From positions 1 through 53,575 of the IMG/VR virus record IMGVR_UViG_3300009285_000009: a DNA stretch of 53,575 nt; one strand, written 5' to 3'. Each line of letters begins with the position of its first letter. Positions within the stretch are counted from its first letter, which is position 1. The notes under the pieces were generated by a model. The model was not told where the DNA came from. It searched no databases and saw nothing but the letters and a program-made list of their open reading frames with translations. The position numbers and the translations under genes are program-made. Positions 3,693-53,575 of the stretch are shown piece by piece. This DNA comes from a virus.

Positions 3693-4292
3693 ATGCCGAA
3701 GAAGATAAAAGCAAGGAAGAAGCCCTACGTAAGCGTAGCAGTAATACCGCCCATAGAAGAACGCAAGAAATGGCAAAGGGTTAATTGGGATACTGTAGCA
3801 TCAGCATATATTACCCGTGATGATTTGCCATCATATGATTACTTGGCTAAGGAATTCGGTATCCACGTAAGCAGTATGCAACGGGTAGCCCACAGAGAAG
3901 ATTGGATAACCCAGAGGAAGATATATTGGGAAAAGGTGGGCATAAAGATGCAGGAAAAGGCAAGCAATAAAGTAGCCGAAATGCGTGCTAAGAATATAGT
4001 TATAGCAAATAAGGCGTTAGAGTATCTGGGGGAATTATTACAGAATAAGTCATTGAATGGGTCTATTAGTGATATAGATAAGATTATCCGCACAATAGAA
4101 TACCTGAATGGCAATCCTGATAGCAGACCTGATGGCGGTGGCTCATTTGAAGAATTCCTTAAACGATTAAATGCTGAACGCAGGAAGGCATATAAGGATT
4201 CAATGGGAGTGAATAATGTGATTGATGTTACGGTAAGCAAAGGGGAAGACGATGATACTGGTAAAAGACCTGATAAGCCAGATAACAAATAG
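3693..4292 (+). CDS. terminase small subunit candidate
   Basis: Basic N-terminus, HTH-like YDYLAKEFGIHVSSMQRVAHRE, acidic tail; positioned upstream of the large terminase; positional call only. Confidence 0.5.
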   Translation: MPKKIKARKKPYVSVAVIPPIEERKKWQRVNWDTVASAYITRDDLPSYDYLAKEFGIHVSSMQRVAHREDWITQRKIYWEKVGIKMQEKASNKVAEMRAKNIVIANKALEYLGELLQNKSLNGSISDIDKIIRTIEYLNGNPDSRPDGGGSFEEFLKRLNAERRKAYKDSMGVNNVIDVTVSKGEDDDTGKRPDKPDNK

Positions 4293-4500
4293 GGCGGTAG
4301 GGTATATACCGTGCTTTGATGAATGGCTTCTGGCACATAAGGGTAAGCCGTTAGCCATAAGGCATAGTGTGATTAATAGGGTAAAGGATTGTATATGTGT
4401 TGCCGAGGTATATACGATAATCTGTAGTTGCAATGAATGCGGTGATGAATATACGGTGATATTGGAGTATAAAATAAATAATAATCCTATAAATACTTGA
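4252..4500 (+). CDS. hypothetical Cys-rich 82-aa protein
   Basis: ATG 4252 after aagggga RBS; overlaps previous gene by 41 nt; CICVAEV..CSCNECGDEY. Confidence 0.35.
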   Translation: MILVKDLISQITNRAVGYIPCFDEWLLAHKGKPLAIRHSVINRVKDCICVAEVYTIICSCNECGDEYTVILEYKINNNPINT

Positions 4501-4524
4501 CAAAACTAAAAATAAGTATAATAT
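4497..4524 (+). promoter_or_regulatory. sigma70-like promoter P0 (TTGACA-16 nt-TAATAT)
   Basis: -35 TTGACA 4497..4502, -10 TAATAT 4519..4524; upstream AATAAT..ACTTGACAA resembles the early-promoter box. Confidence 0.5.
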
Positions 4525-4527
4525 GGG

Positions 4528-4640
4528 TATTATGAGAGCAATGGGTATAACAGAAATAAAAATAAATCAAAGGGGGCGTGGTGCATTTCCTGTATCACAC
4601 AGAAAAACCTATTGCTCTCACAATAAGTAACCACGCTCCC
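4528..4640 (+). ncRNA. structured 5' leader with interleaved stems (pseudoknot-like), copy 1
   Basis: S1 4528..4542 pairs with 4611..4625 (14 bp, 1 mismatch). S2 4572..4582, inside the S1 loop, pairs with 4630..4640 (11 bp, one G-U). 4-nt junction. Confidence 0.45.
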
Positions 4641-4665
4641 ATTATCACTGAAAGGACACATATAT

Positions 4666-6369
4666 ATGATAGAATCCTTAACTTCCGAGCAGGAATTAAA
4701 ATTAAAAGAATACGAGGATAAGTGGACGGCAATCGGTCTGGATACTACGCAGTTTAATGAATCTATCGCAAGACCGATTATCAATAATTTGTATACCGAG
4801 ATATTAGATTACCCTAAAAACCCATTTTTATATATTGCCGAATCCCCGATAGAGGCGTGGTTTGCAGTGATGTTTTTGTATTCTATAATTGAGGACGCTA
4901 AGGTCTGGGATAAGGTCGGGGATAAGGTCGGGGCTAAGGTCGGGGCTAAGGTCAGGGCTAAGGTCGAGGCTAAGGTCAGGGATAAGGTCAGGGATAAGGT
5001 CGGGGATAAGGTCTGGGCTAAGGTCAGGGATAAGGTCGGGGATAAGGTCTGGGCTAAGGTCTGGGATAAGGTCAGGGATAAGGTCGGGGATAAGGTCTGG
5101 GCTAAGGTCTGGGATAAGGTCAGGGCTAAGGTCGGGGATAAGGTCAGGGCTAAGGTCTGGGCTAAGGTCGAGGCTAAGGTCGGGGATAAGGTCAGGGCTA
5201 AGGTCGAGGCTAAGGTCAGGGATAAGGTCAGGGATAAGGTCGGGGATAAGGTCTGGGCTAAGGTCAGGGATAAGGTCGGGGATAAGGTCTGGGCTAAGGT
5301 CTGGGATAAGGTCAGGGATAAGGTCGGGGATAAGGTCTGGGCTAAGGTCTGGGATAAGGTCAGGGCTAAGGTCGGGGATAAGGTCAGGGCTAAGGTCTGG
5401 GCTAAGGTCGAGGCTAAGGTCGGGGATAAGGTCAGGGCTAAGGTCGAGGCTAAGGTCAGGGATAAGGTCAGGGATAAGGTCGGGGATAAGGTCTGGGCTA
5501 AGGTCAGGGATAAGGTCGAGGCTAAGGTCAGGGATAAGGTCAGGGATAAGGTCGGGGATAAGGTCTGGGATAAGGTCTGGGCTAAGGTCAGGGCTAAGGT
5601 CTGGGCTAAGGTCGAGGCTAAGGTCGGGGATAAGGTCAGGGATAAGGTCTGGGATAAGGTCAGGGATAAGGTCGGGGATAAGGTCTGGGCTAAGGTCAGG
5701 GATAAGGTCGGGGATAAGGTCGAGGCTACTTTACCAAATTTTATATACCCCAACATAGATGGGAATTTCTCAGTAAATTATTTTGCTTTTTATGATTTTA
5801 TGCAGGAAGTAATTGGTGTTGAAATATATAATCTCGTAGGGTTATATAATATATACAAGGATACGACTAAATTATCGTTAATTTATCCCTTTGAGGATTG
5901 GTGTGTTGTATGCCAGAAGCCAACAATTATTAATCTTAAAAATAATGAACTTCACAAAGACGGAGGAATGGCTTTAGAATATAGCGATGGTTTTGGATTG
6001 TGGTGTCTTAACGGAACATCTGTAAGTCAAGAAATTGCAGAAACTCCGGCAGAGAAATTACCAGCCACTTTAGTATTGTCTGAAAAAAACGCAGAAGTTC
6101 GGCGTGAGATAGTCAGGAAAATAGGTATAGAGAGGGTCTGCAAAGACCTTAACTCCAAGATTATAGATACAGGAATAGACCATAAGGGCAACTTATGTGA
6201 ATTGCTTGTGCTTGATATTGGGGACGGCAGACAAAGACCATTTATCAAACTGGTAAATCCAAGTATCGGATGTTATCATATAGAGGGGGTGCATCCTGAT
6301 TGTGACACGATTGAAAAAGCATTTAACTTCAGGAATGGAACAATAGAAAAACCAATTTTATTAACTTAA
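4666..6369 (+). CDS. DUF6745-like protein carrying a 69-unit [D/A]-K-V-[G/R/W/E] tetrapeptide array
   Basis: aaagga RBS. N-terminal LTSEQELKLKEYEDKWTAIGLDTT; C-terminal LHKDGGMALEYSDGFGLWCLNG...NAEVRREIVRKIGIERVC, recalled from the bacterial DUF6745 family. Central perfect tetrapeptide periodicity. Confidence 0.85.
   Translation: MIESLTSEQELKLKEYEDKWTAIGLDTTQFNESIARPIINNLYTEILDYPKNPFLYIAESPIEAWFAVMFLYSIIEDAKVWDKVGDKVGAKVGAKVRAKVEAKVRDKVRDKVGDKVWAKVRDKVGDKVWAKVWDKVRDKVGDKVWAKVWDKVRAKVGDKVRAKVWAKVEAKVGDKVRAKVEAKVRDKVRDKVGDKVWAKVRDKVGDKVWAKVWDKVRDKVGDKVWAKVWDKVRAKVGDKVRAKVWAKVEAKVGDKVRAKVEAKVRDKVRDKVGDKVWAKVRDKVEAKVRDKVRDKVGDKVWDKVWAKVRAKVWAKVEAKVGDKVRDKVWDKVRDKVGDKVWAKVRDKVGDKVEATLPNFIYPNIDGNFSVNYFAFYDFMQEVIGVEIYNLVGLYNIYKDTTKLSLIYPFEDWCVVCQKPTIINLKNNELHKDGGMALEYSDGFGLWCLNGTSVSQEIAETPAEKLPATLVLSEKNAEVRREIVRKIGIERVCKDLNSKIIDTGIDHKGNLCELLVLDIGDGRQRPFIKLVNPSIGCYHIEGVHPDCDTIEKAFNFRNGTIEKPILLT
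4897..5724. repeat. 69 tandem copies of the 12-mer G[A/C]TAAGGTC[G/A/T][G/A]G with a 240-nt higher-order unit
   Basis: 828 nt / 12 = 69 units. 4947..5278 is identical to 5187..5518 (offset 240). All three forward/reverse frames are open as a consequence. Confidence 0.95.
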
Positions 6370-6385
6370 AAGAAAGGGGTATAAA

Positions 6386-6685
6386 ATGTTATACCAACAA
6401 GGCGATGTGATTTTGGAGACGGTGGAAATGATACCGGAAAACCTTAAAACCCATAATGGCGTAATCGCAGAGGGTGAAACTACCGGACACGCCCATCGGG
6501 TGGATTTGAGCGGAGTGGATGTATTCGTGGCTGATGATGGAACTCTTTATTGTGAGGCGATGAAAGAGTTTACCATAACCCACGAGGAACATAAACCCAT
6601 TACCTTGCCGAAGGGAAAATATAAGGTTCGTAAGGTGCTGGAATATGACCACTTTGCGGAGGAGGCAAGAGTGGTAAGGGATTAA
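6386..6685 (+). CDS. conserved small phage protein (QGDV...GETTGHAH motif), function unknown
   Basis: aaagggg RBS; 99 aa; the QQGDVIL and GETTGHAHRV pattern is common in phage hypothetical proteins (recalled). Confidence 0.7.
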   Translation: MLYQQGDVILETVEMIPENLKTHNGVIAEGETTGHAHRVDLSGVDVFVADDGTLYCEAMKEFTITHEEHKPITLPKGKYKVRKVLEYDHFAEEARVVRD

Positions 6686-6695
6686 AAAGTGGTGT

Positions 6696-8306
6696 ATGTT
6701 TAAGTTACCAGAATTAACAACGCCGATTGATTACCGCACATTAGGAAAATACGAAGATATATTCAAACGCCCGGCAAGGTATATCCAGAAATTCCTATGG
6801 ATTAAGAATAAGCATTCTGATATTATACCGTTTTTCTTTAATTCTACACAAGTAAGATACCGGCGGATGAAGCGGATAGAATTAGCAAAGGTCAGGGTTG
6901 TTAACCCTTACGCTAAACCGCATTACCTGGTGCTTAAATATAGGCAGGGCGGAATCACCACAGAGGAACAGGGTGAGAATTTTCATCTCATAGCAACAAA
7001 GGAAAACCAGAATTGCATAACACTGGCGCACGATAAGAAGACAACCGAAGAAATATTTGATATAGCCCAGTTATTTGACCGCAACCTTACGCCCGAAATA
7101 AGACCTAAACGGGACTGGGATAATAAGTCAGAGATAGAATATAAGGGGCTTAATTCCAAGTTTCATATCGGCACAGCGGGTAATACGAGTTTTGGCCGTG
7201 GGCAAACATTCCAAAGGGTTCATCTATCTGAAGTGCCGCTTTATGGCAGGAAAAAGCATCAACATACCATCAGCATATCTGACATACAGAATCTAATATC
7301 AGGCATACTCAGGGCGTGTCCTTATGGCGATGTGGTGGCAGAGGGGACAGGCCAGGGCGCAAAGGGGTGGTTTTATCAGACCTGGAATGAGGCGAAAAAG
7401 AGTAAGTGCCGAAATGGATGGATACCGATATTCCTGCCGTGGTTTATTGACCCACTGAATAGTATGCCATTATTATCCGGCGAGGATATAGAATATACCG
7501 ATGAGGAAAAGATATTAATCAGTAGGGCGAAGGAAAATTATGGCGTAGATATGAAACCGGAACAAATTAAATGGCGCAGGTTTATGAAAGAAGAGGAAAA
7601 ACTCTTTGACCAGGAATTCCCGGAGGACGATATTACGGCCTTTATGGTCTCCGGTTCATCCAAGTTTGATATGTTGATATTAAGGGATTTGGTTAAGGAT
7701 TGCGCCAATCCGGTTGAAGAAAAGATACTTGACGGCGGTAGTTTACTTCAGTGGGTTAAGCCGATAGCCGGTAGGCGGTATGTTATAGGCGCAGATGTAG
7801 GCGAGGGGCTGGCTAATTCTGATTACTCAACTGGGACGGTGCTGGATTACGAGACCTGCGAGCAGGTAGCCCGGCTAATGGGGCGATGGAAGCCGGAAGT
7901 ATTCGGGGTTAAACTGGCTAACCTGGGATTGATGTATAACAAGGCATTGATTGGAGTAGAGGCGAATAACCACGGACATAGCACTCTGAATACTTTGCTA
8001 AATACTTTACACTATCCACGATTATATTATCATAAGAACTATGACAATACTGGCGGCCAACAACTGGGCTGGCAGACCAATGCCAAGACGAGGGATTTAT
8101 TGATAGGCGAACTAAAAACAGCCATAGAAGAATACCTAATGAAAATAAATGATACAGAATTTATTGACCAGTGTATGACATTTCAGGATGATGGGACAGG
8201 CAAGTATCAGGCAGAAGAAGGTTGCTTTGACGATTTGGTTCTGGCATATGCAATTGCTTGGCAACTGCGAAAAGTCCACGGCATAAGTCCGAGAATAACC
8301 ACATAG
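6696..8306 (+). CDS. terL: terminase large subunit
   Basis: 536 aa; ATPase-type KYRQGGITTEEQ segment, LSEVPLYG, C-terminal nuclease-like IGADVGEG and FDDLVLAYAIA. Confidence 0.85.
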   Translation: MFKLPELTTPIDYRTLGKYEDIFKRPARYIQKFLWIKNKHSDIIPFFFNSTQVRYRRMKRIELAKVRVVNPYAKPHYLVLKYRQGGITTEEQGENFHLIATKENQNCITLAHDKKTTEEIFDIAQLFDRNLTPEIRPKRDWDNKSEIEYKGLNSKFHIGTAGNTSFGRGQTFQRVHLSEVPLYGRKKHQHTISISDIQNLISGILRACPYGDVVAEGTGQGAKGWFYQTWNEAKKSKCRNGWIPIFLPWFIDPLNSMPLLSGEDIEYTDEEKILISRAKENYGVDMKPEQIKWRRFMKEEEKLFDQEFPEDDITAFMVSGSSKFDMLILRDLVKDCANPVEEKILDGGSLLQWVKPIAGRRYVIGADVGEGLANSDYSTGTVLDYETCEQVARLMGRWKPEVFGVKLANLGLMYNKALIGVEANNHGHSTLNTLLNTLHYPRLYYHKNYDNTGGQQLGWQTNAKTRDLLIGELKTAIEEYLMKINDTEFIDQCMTFQDDGTGKYQAEEGCFDDLVLAYAIAWQLRKVHGISPRITT

Positions 8307-16364: not shown

Positions 16365-16400
16365 GGGGTGGGTAGGGTTTTTCTAAACCTCGCCCACCCC
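16365..16400 (+). terminator. strong hairpin after the capsid gene (terminator/attenuator or mRNA stabiliser)
   Basis: GGGGTGGGTAGGGTTT pairs with AAACCTCGCCCACCCC (16 positions: 13 WC, 2 G-U, 1 mismatch); no clear U-tract. Confidence 0.5.
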
Positions 16401-42117: not shown

Positions 42118-42161
42118 AATAATATTATTTTACTTGACAATTTGTCAAGAATGGTTATAGT
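42118..42161 (+). promoter_or_regulatory. early promoter P1 with 23-nt conserved box and palindromic -35 region
   Basis: Box AATAATATTATTTTACTTGACAA 42118..42140; -35 TTGACA 42134..42139; -10 TATAGT 42156..42161 (16-nt spacer); palindrome TTGACAATTTGTCAA 42134..42148. Confidence 0.6.
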
Positions 42162-42230
42162 ATACAGTAGAAGCGGGGAAGATGAAAGCCCGAAGCAAAA
42201 CAGTAACATCCTGAAAGGGGGTGATTTTAG

Positions 42231-42443: not shown

Positions 42444-42552
42444 CCGCCTCCTAACTTGGGGCGGACGGCTTGAATGCTCATCTCAAGCCGGAGGGTTGAT
42501 AATTAATGAGCGATTAGAAACCGCCGGGGGTGGCGAGAGGGTCACCCCCGGC
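42444..42552 (+). other. three consecutive GC-rich hairpins
   Basis: 42444..42464 (CCGCCTC/GGGGCGG), 42466..42490 (CGGCTTGA/TCAAGCCG), 42523..42552 (GCCGGGGGTG/CACCCCCGGC); no U-tracts. Confidence 0.4.
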
Positions 42553-45286: not shown

Positions 45287-45330
45287 AATAATATTATTTT
45301 ACTTGACAAATAATAAGATTATGCTAAAAA
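45287..45330 (+). promoter_or_regulatory. early promoter P2 with the same 23-nt box
   Basis: AATAATATTATTTTACTTGACAA 45287..45309 identical to P1; -35 45303..45308; extended -10 TGcTAAAAA 45322..45330. Confidence 0.55.
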
Positions 45331-48595: not shown

Positions 48596-48623
48596 TTGAC
48601 AAATAATACTATTATCCTATAAT
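48596..48623 (+). promoter_or_regulatory. promoter P3 (TTGACA-16 nt-TATAAT)
   Basis: Consensus hexamers at 48596..48601 and 48618..48623. Confidence 0.65.
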
Positions 48624-48629
48624 GACGGA

Positions 48630-48738
48630 TGTGAATGAAATGAGTAATAATCTTAAACAGATAATCAGCAGGGATAGGGCAGGAAGCAGGTCAATTTATT
48701 GCTTGTTTCATTCACACTGTTCTATACCCTGCTTTTTT
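48630..48738 (+). ncRNA. interleaved-stem structured RNA ending in a U-tract, copy 2 (leader or discrete small RNA)
   Basis: S1 48630..48650 pairs with 48696..48716 (21 bp, 3 G-U). S2 48667..48677 pairs with 48722..48733 (11 bp, one bulge). TTTTTT run spans 48733..48738. Confidence 0.5.
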
Positions 48739-48745
48739 ATTTAAT

Positions 48746-49399
48746 ATGCCACAAAAGGTATTTCCCGATTCAAGGGGCAAGGCCAGTATAAGTCAATGCC
48801 TAATGTGTGGGAAAAATATTAGAATAATACCGGCCATGGTAAGACAGGAAAAAGGTAAGTTTTGTTCCCGCAAATGTGTGTGGCAATGGAGTTCTAAAAA
48901 TAGGAGTGGGATAAATAGTCCTGGATGGAAGAGGCAACTAAGGCAATGTAAGGAATGCGGCAATAATTTTTATGCCCTTATCTCACAGATTAAAATAGGG
49001 AGCGGTAAATTCTGTTCAAGAAAATGTAAAGGGAAGGGACAAATAAAAAGATTAATAGGTAATAGATATGGATGGAAGGGTGGCTTAACTCCGGCAAGCA
49101 CATTAATCCGTTCTTCAGATAAATACAAAAATTGGCGTTCACAAGTATTCATCAGGGATAACTTTACCTGTCAGAAATGCGGAGATAGTACAGGTGGAAA
49201 TTTAGAAGCACATCATAAACGAGGATTTAGAATATTAATGAGGGAGGCACACGAATATATGCCCTTGTTCTCATTATATGCCGCTTGTATGATTTATGCC
49301 CCGCTATGGGATATTAACAATGGTAAGACACTTTGTAAAAAATGCCACGATGAAACGAGAGGAAGCATTTATGCCAGAAGAAAATATAACGATAGATGA
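48746..49399 (+). CDS. HNH homing endonuclease
   Basis: KYKNWRSQVFIRDNFTCQKCG..LEAHH..PLFSLYAACMIYAPLWDINNGKTLCKKCH; two GKFCSRKC zinc-knuckle repeats; no SD upstream. Confidence 0.85.
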   Translation: MPQKVFPDSRGKASISQCLMCGKNIRIIPAMVRQEKGKFCSRKCVWQWSSKNRSGINSPGWKRQLRQCKECGNNFYALISQIKIGSGKFCSRKCKGKGQIKRLIGNRYGWKGGLTPASTLIRSSDKYKNWRSQVFIRDNFTCQKCGDSTGGNLEAHHKRGFRILMREAHEYMPLFSLYAACMIYAPLWDINNGKTLCKKCHDETRGSIYARRKYNDR

Positions 49400-50343: not shown

Positions 50344-50388
50344 AATAATATCATTTTACTTGACAAATTGTTTGATTTTGTTTAATTA
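50344..50388 (+). promoter_or_regulatory. early promoter P4 with the 23-nt box (1 mismatch)
   Basis: AATAATATCATTTTACTTGACAA 50344..50366; -35 50360..50365; -10-like TAATTA 50383..50388. Confidence 0.55.
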
Positions 50389-50411
50389 TCGCCAGAAGGA
50401 GAGAGATACTA

Positions 50412-50681: not shown

Positions 50682-50708
50682 TTGACAAACATTTTAATAT
50701 AATATATC
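50682..50708 (+). promoter_or_regulatory. promoter P5 (TTGACA, -10 ambiguous)
   Basis: TTGACA 50682..50687; AT-rich TATATC 50703..50708 at 15-nt spacing; weaker than P3. Confidence 0.4.
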
Positions 50709-50717
50709 CTAATTTTA

Positions 50718-50829
50718 TGACAAGGATATACGGCGTAACAGTACACTCAATGAGGCGGGGAAGCAATTCGTCTAAACAACCATTTGCTATATGTCCTTGT
50801 CAGACACCTCGCCTCACTTTTCTTATTTT
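50718..50829 (+). ncRNA. interleaved-stem structured RNA ending in a U-rich tract, copy 3
   Basis: S1 50718..50730 pairs with 50790..50802 (13 bp, one G-U). S2 50751..50760 pairs with 50807..50816 (10 bp, one G-U). Followed by CTTTTCTTATTTT. Confidence 0.45.
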
Positions 50830-51414
50830 ATGAGAGAAATTATCACCATAGTGGCATATAAGCAATTCGTTAAGAGCAACACCGATAATGCTATTACTCT
50901 TCACGGCACATCTATCAGGGCTGATATGGGATATAGGGCTTTATCGCCTATGGCTAAATTAATGTTTTTTAACGCTCTATTAATATCTAATAAAGACGGA
51001 AAGTTATACCATACATTCTCTGACAACCCATACACCGCAGAAGAATTAATTAGGTCTGTAAGTAGTCATAACAATCGCAACGATTTATTAGGTAAGGCAT
51101 TTTTAGAATTGATACATTATGGGCTAATTCATTCCAATATTAAATATGACAGGGTTAGTAAAATCGCACACGATAAATATTCTACAGATTGGACTGAAGA
51201 TTTAAGAATGGCTGTTAGAAAAAGGGACGGTTATAAATGCAGAGTATGCAGTAAAGACGGTATACAGGTGCATCATATTGATTATAATAAATCTAATTGC
51301 GACCCTGGAAATCTCGTTACATTATGCTCCCGATGTCATAACAAAACAAACATCCGGCGTGAGTATTGGAAGAAATATTTTACAGAAAGAAAAGATAATG
51401 CCAGACATTATTAA
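50830..51414 (+). CDS. HNH endonuclease with N-terminal putative DNA-binding domain
   Basis: YKCRVCSKDGIQVHHIDYNKSNCDPGNLVTLCSRCHNKT; track start 50791 lies inside stem S1, and ATG 50830 follows the U-tract as at 48746. Confidence 0.7.
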   Translation: MREIITIVAYKQFVKSNTDNAITLHGTSIRADMGYRALSPMAKLMFFNALLISNKDGKLYHTFSDNPYTAEELIRSVSSHNNRNDLLGKAFLELIHYGLIHSNIKYDRVSKIAHDKYSTDWTEDLRMAVRKRDGYKCRVCSKDGIQVHHIDYNKSNCDPGNLVTLCSRCHNKTNIRREYWKKYFTERKDNARHY

Positions 51415-52246: not shown

Positions 52247-52876
52247 ATGGATATAAATCAATATAAAGATAGCAGGAAACCGCTTAAAAAGGTTTTGACT
52301 ATACCGCCCAGATTTGAAGGCACTGCATTAGAGATAGACAATCAATGGTGTAAGGATTGGGTATTGCAGGCGGTTAATGGCAGGGTAAAGAAATCACCTA
52401 TGCTTGCCGGGGCGACCGGGGTAGGGAAAACATATCAGTTGTATGCAATGGCAAACGAAATATGCAATATAGTTAATCAGCGTAATATAGACGAATGGAA
52501 TAAAATAATTGATTATACTTCGCCTGTTTACAAATATCCCCGGATGAAAATAATAACTGAAGTTGATTTATTTTATCGGATGCGGGAAGCCCCAAATCAG
52601 CAGGCGGAATGGCATCTGCTTAAAGATATAAGAACTATTGATATTTTATTGATTGATGACATTGGAACTGCTAATGCCGGTAATAAGGCATTAGAGACAT
52701 TATTTAATATATTAGATTGGCGGGGTAAAAACTGTTTGGCAACAGTTATAACTACCAATATGACTATTCAAGAAATAGCACAGGGGTATGGTGAAAAAAT
52801 AGCAAGTAGGATTATAGAAATGTGTAAGGTTATTATTATGAACGGTGAGGATTACAGGGTTAAAGATAACATATGA
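52247..52876 (+). CDS. DnaC/IstB-like AAA+ helicase loader
   Basis: Walker A GATGVGKT; Walker B LLIDDIG; follows the organiser gene. Confidence 0.8.
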   Translation: MDINQYKDSRKPLKKVLTIPPRFEGTALEIDNQWCKDWVLQAVNGRVKKSPMLAGATGVGKTYQLYAMANEICNIVNQRNIDEWNKIIDYTSPVYKYPRMKIITEVDLFYRMREAPNQQAEWHLLKDIRTIDILLIDDIGTANAGNKALETLFNILDWRGKNCLATVITTNMTIQEIAQGYGEKIASRIIEMCKVIIMNGEDYRVKDNI

Positions 52877-53538
52877 TAAAAAGATGCCCCATTTGTAACA
52901 AGAAAATTAGTAATAGGGCAAAGTATTGCTGGAAGCATTGTCACACCAAAGAATGGCGTGAGAAGAACGGAACAATTCATAGGAAACCTAATACACACAG
53001 ATTTTGTAAATCCTGTAATAAAAGGATAGATAGTCGTTCGGAATATTGTGCCATTCATTACAGGGAATATTCCGATTGGATTAAGAACCAGAGTAAGTCA
53101 CATATGGGGAAAACCCCCCGATTGGGAATGAAGCATACAGATAAAACAAAAAATAAAATTCGTGCGAAACAATTAGGTAGAAAATATTCAGTTGAAATTA
53201 ATAGAAAAAAGGGCTCTAAGGGAAATAGAAATCCTAATTGGAAGGGAGGGATAACAACCACCATTCAATTACTTAGACAGTGCGTGCAATACAAAAAATG
53301 GCGACAAGATATATTTATAAGGGATAACTTTACTTGTTGTGAGTGTGGGCAAAAAGGCGGATATTTAGAAGCCCATCACATAAAATTATTTAGTAAGTTA
53401 GTGCAGGAAGCAAGAAATTATATGCCATTATTCCCATTATATGACGCTTGTATGCTTTATACGCCATTATGGGATATTGATAATGGGATAACTTTATGTA
53501 AAAAGTGTCACGACAAAACTAAAAGAAAATCTATGTGA
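52873..53538 (+). CDS. HNH homing endonuclease
   Basis: ATGA overlap; NUMOD3-like GMKHTDKTKNKI; KKWRQDIFIRDNFTCCECG..LEAHH..PLFPLYDACMLYTPLWDIDNGITLCKKCH; its last 40 nt are repeated at 1..40. Confidence 0.85.
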   Translation: MIKRCPICNKKISNRAKYCWKHCHTKEWREKNGTIHRKPNTHRFCKSCNKRIDSRSEYCAIHYREYSDWIKNQSKSHMGKTPRLGMKHTDKTKNKIRAKQLGRKYSVEINRKKGSKGNRNPNWKGGITTTIQLLRQCVQYKKWRQDIFIRDNFTCCECGQKGGYLEAHHIKLFSKLVQEARNYMPLFPLYDACMLYTPLWDIDNGITLCKKCHDKTKRKSM

Positions 53539-53575
53539 AATTATAATCATATCCGGGGAAGATAGAAGGGTAAAA
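53499..53575. repeat. second copy of the 77-nt terminal repeat
   Basis: Identical to 1..77. Confidence 0.95.

Follow-up and report, generated by a model that had tools for sequence, protein, structure and literature searches.

We describe a structured 5′ leader of about 105 nucleotides (nt) that occurs three times in the genome of a groundwater phage, IMG/VR virus record IMGVR_UViG_3300009285_000009, whose whole stretch of 53,575 nt (positions 1 to 53,575) was analysed and is called the window below. Each copy combines two long-range helices, S1 and S2, whose arms interleave, with a short open reading frame (ORF) that runs through them; the copies are named A (48.6 kb), B (50.7 kb) and C (4.5 kb). 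This triplicated, strand-specific structured leader is real and lies outside the described RNA families. The reading of its role that we favour, with a probability of roughly 0.4, is drawn from sequence analysis: the leader would gate expression of the downstream gene through translation of the 5′-proximal short ORF, locking of its start codon by S1, and a conditional terminator formed by S2 and a U-tract.

Three copies of one architecture

Element A was noticed in an earlier sequence-only reading, which described a TTGACA-16-TATAAT promoter, a 21-base-pair (bp) stem starting at 48630, a loop segment (48667-77) able to pair with 48722-33 only 5 nt after that stem, and a U-tract leading to an HNH gene whose ATG, at 48746, has no Shine-Dalgarno (SD) sequence. 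Rereading of the sequence confirmed each of these points (Table 1). S1 of A has 18 Watson-Crick pairs among its 21 (86%), the other 3 being G-U, and a duplex energy of −24.3 kcal/mol; S2 has 11 bp around a bulged A48726 and a duplex energy of −14.8 kcal/mol. The promoter is the sole 12/12 match that a promoter scan found within 40-53.6 kb, and its hexamer positions predict a +1 at A48629 or U48630. Homologues support ATG 48746 as the true start of HNH-A, because the first CxxC of the protein lies 18 residues in. The motif GCAGG occurs three times consecutively in A (48668, 48679, 48685), and the C-rich 3′ arm of S2 (S2b) could therefore pair in shifted registers.

The same reading had proposed that the topology recurs at about 50.7 and 4.5 kb, and both further copies are real. 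The position directly before an HNH gene holds for A and B but not for C, which has no U-tract and precedes a non-HNH gene with an SD; the element is thus not HNH-specific. In the pair search the arms of C were found as 4528-46 with 4607-25 and 4569-82 with 4630-43, in which four extra S1 pairs (4528-31 with 4622-25) would form only if the transcript starts upstream.

In all three copies the arms follow the order 5′ arm 1, 5′ arm 2, 3′ arm 1, 3′ arm 2, with a connector of 4-5 nt and similar spacings. The segment between the 5′ arm of S2 (S2a) and the 3′ arm of S1 (S1b) measures 18, 29 and 24 nt in A, B and C, and L1 measures 16-22 nt. Counted from the 5′-proximal ATG, S2a begins at +35 to +41, S1 closes at +86 to +89 and the last nt of S2b falls at +100 to +109. 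Every copy is intergenic and on the + strand, and the base of S1 lies 0-3 nt from the +1 predicted off a perfect −35 hexamer.

When both strands were scanned for interleaved stems, C and B came out on top (minimum stem scores 14.4 and 12.9), and A, penalised for its bulge, scored just 10.3. Twenty-five dinucleotide-shuffled versions of the entire window gave best values of 9.7-13.7, and 3 of the 25 reached 12, approximately the level of B; the coincidence of strand, intergenic site and promoter +1 is not captured by these shuffles. Identity among the copies is 41-52% in the stem columns. On a hand-anchored alignment scored by script, which is fitted to the helices and for that reason taken as supporting evidence only, the common core (13 bp of S1 and 10 bp of S2) has standard pairs in 69/69 cells, and 16 of its 23 pairs change on both sides. 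When the 3′ partner is slid by 1-3 columns as a control, 37-52% of cells pair and 0-1 pairs are double-changed. MAFFT, given the three copies at natural or equalised length, produces alignments that do not follow the helices.

S1 opens with the same two pairs in every copy, U-A and G-C, whose 5′ members are the U and G of the 5′ ATG. AACAG is present in L1 of all three copies (48656, 50737-41 and 4549-53), for which the chance is about 0.02, and no other loop nucleotide is conserved among A, B and C. The same pentamer occurs in two other 5′ leaders (42199, 16416), and genome-wide it is not enriched, with 80 occurrences observed and 83 expected. A and B also have in common GGAAGCA immediately past S2a (48681-87 and 50758-64).

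Folding and comparison with RNA families

Measured against controls, as the sequence-only reading had proposed, the + strand folds of A, B and C have z-scores of −4.0, −2.6 and −3.9. The nested S1 and S2 states have energies of −24.4 and −31.4 kcal/mol in A, −26.1 and −22.2 in B, and −28.9 and −26.4 in C. The best nested folds reach −34.8, −26.9 and −29.1 kcal/mol, and a crude additive sum for the two-helix state, which ignores sterics, gives about −33, −33 and −38 kcal/mol (A, B, C). Coexistence of both helices as a pseudoknot is plausible on these modelled values. The nested S2 hairpin of A (48667-48733; −31.4 kcal/mol, z −6.7) is directly followed by U5AU3, and when S1a, the 5′ arm of S1, is blocked, as it would be under a ribosome, A is predicted to form a terminator-like hairpin of −33.6 kcal/mol with U5AU3 immediately after it. 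In B the loop closed by the 10-bp helix is branched, and CUUUUCUUAUUUU comes after the helix; C has no U-tract. S1b overlaps the inner part of the extended S2 hairpin only in A.

The elements had been called H-type pseudoknot-like. The part of that description that stands is the topology: the helix order is interleaved in all three copies, and a connector of 4-5 nt follows helix 1. The helices are long, however (13-21 and 10-11 bp), and the inter-helix segment is 18-29 nt rather than the 0-2 nt of a joint that allows coaxial stacking, so that a coaxial classical H-type knot is not implied; nested folds are also nearly as stable.

A DNA-level cruciform or minus-strand signal was considered and rejected for A, where the minus-strand fold is weaker (−21.8 vs −32.1 kcal/mol). 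On the opposite strand 7-9 G-U pairs would become A-C mismatches; the strand comparison of folds does not discriminate B and C.

The earlier failure to match the element to a known RNA family was upheld by database searches. Rfam 15, with its hepatitis delta virus (HDV)-like, hammerhead, twister, pistol, hatchet, group I, HEARO, C4 and riboswitch families, gave no match at the gathering threshold anywhere in the window, and what appeared per element at E up to 10 consisted of far sub-threshold chance matches, mostly to plant and animal microRNA and long non-coding RNA models; ARAGORN found 0 transfer RNA (tRNA) or transfer-messenger RNA genes in the window. A ribozyme or ligand-sensing riboswitch, one of the functions first suggested, is unlikely. 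In a ribozyme resembling that of HDV, a nested double pseudoknot with P3/L3 and P4, helix 1 (P1) would be about 7 bp and begin with a G-U pair, whereas here it is 13-21 bp and begins with U-A; there is no P4, no conserved C before the 3′ strand of P2 (the connectors are CUGUU, GACA and AGUA) and no Rfam HDV match. Self-cleaving ribozymes and riboswitches more generally were rejected on helix lengths, on the absence of conserved core nucleotides, the loops being unconserved except for AACAG, and on the lack of an Rfam match. The put-type antiterminator RNA of phage HK022 consists of two adjacent, non-interleaved stem-loops located after early promoters, and the arms of the present elements interleave.

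Short ORFs and start codons

An ATG stands at the predicted +1 in three of three copies (48629, 50717 and 4532), beginning 6-8 nt past the −10 hexamer. The same spacing is found at 16 of the 166 other promoter-like matches in the window (9.6%). Each leader contains a short ORF, of 34, 38 and 32 codons in A, B and C, that is predicted to be translated. In whole-region shuffles a frame as open as that observed has a P of 0.03 in A, 0.016 in B and 0.010 in C. Stop codons are depleted in these regions because the 5′ arms are purine-rich and the 3′ arms pyrimidine-rich.

Stronger support than frame openness comes from the ATG at +1 in all three copies and from the stop/start junctions, which are formed with exactly the two SD-less genes. 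In B the stop codon overlaps the HNH-B start (ATGA, 50830-33), and in A the junction reads TAA-T-ATG (48742-48). C has no such geometry; its short ORF stops 36 nt upstream of the SD-led ATG at 4666. The starts of HNH-A and HNH-B lack an SD, unlike those of other genes in the window. The U-tract of A reads Phe-Phe-Ile-stop in the frame of the short ORF. The RNA had been taken as non-coding, and with an ATG at +1 and a short frame through the fold in each copy, it is probably not purely so. A frameshift fusion of short ORF and HNH at the U-run was rejected, as relative to the short ORF the HNH gene lies in the +1 frame in A and in the −1 frame in B.

An HNH-A homologue with 48% identity in another metagenomic contig (P0004, L016 597-633) begins exactly 7 nt after an extended −10 promoter (TTGACA-16-TGgTATAAT). 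Its mRNA is predicted to be leaderless, and 5′-terminal initiation therefore appears to be used in this HNH family. Approximately 100 nt upstream in the same locus (490-575) there is a tRNA-like T-arm (GGTTCAATTCC) and an acceptor-like pairing, GGGGGTG/CGCCCCC, for which ARAGORN made no call.

Search for relatives

The only other copy of the leader that was found is identical and comes from a groundwater metagenome (L004). Searches of GenBank phages, in near and distant modes, gave no relative carrying the element. No second instance was found in IMG/VR by protein searches with HNH-A, the Gp3-like protein, ORF 4666, TerL, HNH-B and the DnaC-like loader, in GTDB genomes searched with TerL, or, beyond the identical copy, in a 5.8-billion-protein database searched with HNH-A and the Gp3-like protein. 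The nearest relatives have protein identities of 53% (HNH), 38% (Gp3-like) and 60% (TerL), and the element is in none of the fetched loci. The closest non-identical HNH-A homologue (P0002, 53%, L014 20-71) is preceded by a hairpin-within-stem (ACCUC...GAGGU) and a U-tract. The 3′ arm of that hairpin is the SD of the P0002 gene, and the contig ends 71 nt upstream of the gene, which limits the view to part of the leader.

Genomic setting

The phage genome is about 53.5 kb long. Positions 1-77 of the window are identical to 53499-53575, a 77-nt terminal repeat, from which it follows that the contig is circular or circularly assembled; the replication module, with which the window closes, runs on into the genes at its start. 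Nearly all genes share one strand. The replication module has genes for a Cas4-like exonuclease, a Gp3-like protein, a replication initiator and a DnaC-like loader, and it also contains A and B, each upstream of a free-standing HNH endonuclease gene. C is located between a TerS-like gene (3693-4292) and TerL (6696-8306). In the nearest relative found (L017 6406-8542; 60% TerL identity) the TerS homologue abuts or overlaps TerL, and C and the two ORFs after it are therefore a 2.4-kb insertion (4293-6695). The insertion comprises element C, ORF 4666-6369, which encodes 567 amino acids (aa) with DKVW-type repeats and a DUF6745 match, and ORF 6386-6685. All three elements thus head accessory cassettes that were probably acquired. 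A lambda-like Q antitermination cassette (PR′-tR′) was rejected for C on the grounds that the upstream 199-aa gene is TerS-like and that its homologue abuts TerL in L017.

Table 1. Parts of elements A, B and C and the genes that follow them (window coordinates).
Feature	Position	Strand	Description
Promoter A	48596..48623	+	−35 TTGACA 48596-601, 16-nt spacer, −10 TATAAT 48618-23; 12/12 match
5′-proximal mini-frames A	48629..48643	+	ATG-TGA 48629-34; ATG-AAA-TGA 48635-43; second stop overlaps ATG 48640 as ATGA
S1 5′ arm A	48630..48650	+	pairs with 48696-48716
Short ORF A	48640..48744	+	34 codons, MSNNLKQIISRDRAGSRSIYCLFHSHCSIPCFFI; stop TAA 48742-44, 1 nt ahead of HNH ATG; putatively translated
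L1 of A	48651..48666	+	contains AACAG 48656-60
S2 5′ arm A, G-rich	48667..48677	+	AGCAGGGATAG, also given as AGCAGGGAUAG; pairs with 48722-48733
S1 3′ arm A	48696..48716	+	partner of 48630-48650
S2 3′ arm A, C-rich	48722..48733	+	CTATACCCTGCT, also given as CUAUACCCUGCU; 5 nt (CUGUU) past S1
U-rich tract A	48734..48745	+	UUUUUAUUUAAU, also given as TTTTTATTT; between S2 and HNH start
HNH endonuclease gene A	48746..49399	+	217 aa; no SD
Promoter B	50682..50710	+	TTGACA, 17-nt spacer, TATCCT; 10/12; predicted +1 A50717
Short ORF B	50717..50833	+	ATG at predicted +1; 38 codons; stop TGA 50831-33 overlaps HNH-B ATG 50830 (ATGA)
S1 of B	50718..50802	+	50718-30 with 50790-802 (13 bp) plus 50732-34 with 50786-88
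S2 of B	50751..50816	+	50751-60 with 50807-16 (10 bp); 4 nt (GACA) past S1; then CUUUUCUUAUUUU
HNH endonuclease gene B	50830..51414	+	194 aa from ATG 50830; no SD
Promoter C	4497..4524	+	TTGACA, 16-nt spacer, TAATAT; 10/12; predicted +1 U4531 or A4532
Short ORF C	4532..4630	+	ATG at or next to predicted +1; 32 codons; stop TAA 4628-30 in S1-S2 connector
S1 of C	4533..4620	+	4533-46 with 4607-20 (14 bp)
S2 of C	4572..4640	+	4572-82 with 4630-40 (11 bp); connector AGUA; no U-tract after
Downstream gene of C	4666..6369	+	567-aa repeat protein, DUF6745 match; with SD; non-HNH

Three further + strand promoters of the same type (42134, 45303 and 50360) have ordinary short leaders with an SD and no such structured leader. 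These promoters (42119-42163, 45288-45330 and 50345-50389) have AATAAT AT(T/C)ATTTTACTTGACAA in common, and that at 42134 contains a palindrome, TTGACAATTTGTCAA, that faces a minus-strand promoter match and has an operator-like appearance. The conserved promoter 22-mer was not found elsewhere in IMG/VR; it is present in 9 unrelated metagenome contigs (L029-L037), all without the element, and two of these (L030 and L033) have a similar palindrome. The shared 22-mer hints at a widespread type of promoter/operator.

A third HNH gene (52873-53538), 45% identical to its paralogue HNH-A and overlapping the stop codon of the DnaC-like loader gene, is without a promoter or leader of its own, which indicates that the structured leader is not obligatory for the HNH genes of this phage. 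Elsewhere in the window there are two very stable GC-rich intergenic hairpins (16365-16400 and 42523-42552; region z-scores −5.3 and −5.6), one of which comes after a capsid-like gene. No U-tract follows them on the coding strand, and they may be U-tract-less terminators or stabilisers of mRNA 3′ ends.

Discussion

Of the functions offered by the sequence-only reading, an attenuator or riboregulator that gates a homing endonuclease is the one that we favour, although the link to homing endonucleases does not extend to C. Each element would be the 5′ leader of a separately promoted cassette, in which a stretch of about 105 nt joins a short ORF and two long-range helices. The short ORF would begin at the 5′ end of the transcript or at most ~12 nt into it. 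S1 would pair the U and G of the 5′-terminal AUG, and the next 11-19 nt, with a segment transcribed ~70-88 nt later, and S2 would join a G-rich stretch of the S1 loop to a C-rich one lying 4-5 nt past S1. The 5′ start codon would be open only on nascent RNA; synthesis of S1b, at about +86 to +89, would let S1 lock it. A ribosome loaded in time would translate through the fold and keep S1 and S2 apart, which in A and B would suppress the S2/U-tract terminator; it would then stop on the SD-less HNH start (B, AUGA) or 1 nt before it (A, UAA-U-AUG) and re-initiate. If no ribosome loads, S1 and S2 would fold, transcription may stop at the U-tract (A and B), and the HNH start would go unused. The net effect would be to keep expression of the selfish and potentially toxic nuclease genes low and dependent on translation. 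C would be an adapted form, having no U-tract, so that transcription of the essential terminase continues, and a downstream gene with its own SD.

Published work fits this scheme. 70S ribosomes can initiate at AUGs located at or very near a 5′ end (PMC9031893), the NTGA/ATGA overlap is the commonest coupling motif in prokaryotes (PMC12548453), and phage homing endonucleases are typically restrained by hairpins, internal terminators and promoter choice (PMC2988022). A more extreme version of the gate can be imagined, a 'one-shot' device in which the start codon is covered by the long-range helix about 90 nt later, so that only the pioneer ribosome on the nascent RNA enters, blocks the terminator helix and passes to the SD-less nuclease start, after which the 5′-terminal pseudoknot closes and bars any further initiation. 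We consider this version unlikely. If it were true, about one nuclease molecule would be made per transcript, the closed pseudoknot may resist 5′ exonucleases, and the leader would be a portable design, reused three times in one genome for inserted genes.

Several points weigh against the gating model. C fits neither its terminator part nor its coupling part, and the model leaves unexplained why the helices interleave rather than nest. In A the 5′-terminal ATG runs straight into TGA, and the 34-codon frame opens at +12 without an SD. In B an in-frame ATG inside S1b (50791) is an alternative to 50830 as the start of HNH-B. The +1 positions are predicted from the spacing of the hexamers, and B and C have weak −10 hexamers (TATCCT and TAATAT). 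When shuffling is done segment by segment, an open frame of at least 30 codons has a P of 0.14-0.22 per element, so that openness alone is weak evidence for translation. S2 closes a 44-47-nt loop, which is non-canonical for a terminator, and a consensus terminator scan called none of the three. Finally, no orthologue was found with which to test covariation or frame conservation, the three paralogues being the only comparison.

Other explanations place the weight on the RNA itself. The leader may be a non-coding pseudoknot, either a terminated small RNA of ~105 nt or a riboregulator that is bound by protein or otherwise sensed, with the frames incidental. Both helices are strongly kept across three divergent copies, the rough two-helix energy sums are about equal to or better than those of the nested folds, A and B end in U-rich tracts, the L1 loops share AACAG, and the open frames are only mildly unexpected given local composition. 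We nevertheless think this somewhat unlikely. Loops that are unconserved apart from AACAG argue against a ligand pocket or catalytic core, Rfam is empty up to E 10, and the lack of a U-tract in C means that a terminated small RNA, as first suggested, fails as an account of all copies. Nor does a non-coding role explain the ATG at +1 in 3/3 copies or the stop/start junctions of the SD-less HNH genes. A trans-acting antisense RNA was rejected separately, since complementary or repeated sites elsewhere in the genome do not exceed 13 nt. A plain promoter-proximal terminator or insulator, in which S2 and the U-tract constitutively stop most transcripts with no involvement of a ribosome, is improbable. 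A and B do resemble intrinsic terminators in having a G+C-containing helix and then a U-rich run, which in A follows the stable nested S2 hairpin and in B is CUUUUCUUAUUUU, and in T4 internal terminators limit the transcripts of mobE and segF (PMC2988022). The helix, however, closes 44-47 nt rather than 3-8 nt and is sited behind a promoter instead of at an operon's end; C has no U-run; and the genes for the replication initiator and the DnaC-like loader, which need transcription, lie downstream of B. A plain terminator would moreover have no role for S1 or for the conserved geometry.

The structure might instead protect the 5′ end of the mRNA against decay by RNase E/RppH or RNase J, or provide an RNase III site in S1, with S2 adding compaction, an explanation that we regard as doubtful. 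It is known that 5′-terminal stem-loops stabilise bacterial mRNAs and that phages put RNase III sites after early promoters, as in the early mRNAs of T7 and SP82. S1 has its base at the predicted +1 in 3/3 copies, it is substantial (21 bp in A, 13+3 in B and 14 in C; −22 to −24 kcal/mol), and structure has been kept while sequence has not, as selection by a structure-specific host enzyme or for end protection would produce. Against this, a simple hairpin would be enough, which leaves the conserved, interleaving second helix unexplained, as well as the ATG at +1 and the stop/start junctions. With respect to the ~20 bp usual for RNase III, A has sufficient duplex, B is borderline and C falls short, and the three other promoters of the same type are without such a leader. 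Very improbable, finally, is that the elements are three paralogous genes for functional small proteins of 32-38 aa, to which the helices are secondary. The products are similar in length and all have Arg-x-Gly at residues 13-15 and a Cys at residues 21-28, but the shared Arg/Gly follows from reading through the G-rich S2a arm, the peptides resemble one another no more than shuffled sequences do (pairwise P 0.19-0.46), none of the three matches a PHROG family, and conservation is far stronger in the helices than in the peptides. If the frames are used, what matters is translation rather than its product.

Comparison with known systems places the element near several of them. In attenuation of the trp and erm type, helices compete in the pairings 1:2, 2:3 and 3:4. 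The phage leaders are similar in having a short ORF at the transcript start with helices in and around it, a candidate U-tract (A and B) and a downstream gene that would depend on the leader. They differ in that the pairing is 1:3 and 2:4, S1 and S2 share no nucleotides, unlike the mutually exclusive antiterminator and terminator hairpins of trp-type leaders, which have a strand in common, there are no regulatory codon runs, the leader start codon is itself paired, and coupling to an SD-less start is by stop/start overlap. In the MS2 maturation leader, the MS2 coat-replicase interaction and hok/mok, a start site is closed by long-distance pairing once downstream RNA has been made, and a toxic or tightly limited product is expressed via coupling to an upstream frame. 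Those systems pair the SD region rather than a 5′-terminal AUG, are not known to have an interleaved second helix, and belong to RNA phages and plasmid toxin loci, not to promoter-proximal leaders of cassettes in a double-stranded DNA phage. Leader-peptide attenuators also include leaderless short-ORF attenuators in mycobacteria (bioRxiv 10.1101/834739, PMC4633059).

The expression of T4-type homing endonuclease genes (I-TevI/II/III, segB, mobE, seg43(25)) is governed by hairpins, internal terminators and promoter placement (PMC2988022). The likeness lies in a cis RNA structure or terminator-like element upstream of a homing endonuclease gene with its own promoter, and in expression presumed to be low or timed. 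In T4, however, one local hairpin masks a consensus SD, and a late promoter inside that hairpin relieves the block. Here two long-range helices interleave, the HNH genes have no SD, and their starts lie 12-13 nt 3′ of S2, outside the structure and within unpaired, U-rich sequence; the helices are traversed by a short ORF, and one copy serves a non-nuclease gene. In function the element most resembles controls based on leader ORFs and structure and the hairpins of homing endonuclease genes, and its architecture is distinct from both.

For the search for RNA motifs the case carries a caution: a strongly 'covarying' structure can overlie a short frame, which alters its interpretation. If confirmed, the leader would also be a compact part (~135 bp with its promoter) with which toxic genes could be expressed at very low, translation-dependent levels. 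More generally, inserted genes, including free-standing homing endonucleases, need to be expressed in a way that is harmless to the phage, for which T4 uses SD hairpins, terminators and promoter choice. The phage described here appears to use a different, modular solution, which has been copied three times. If confirmed, it would represent a new cis-regulatory leader architecture, in which leaderless-type initiation serves as a regulatory input in a double-stranded DNA phage.

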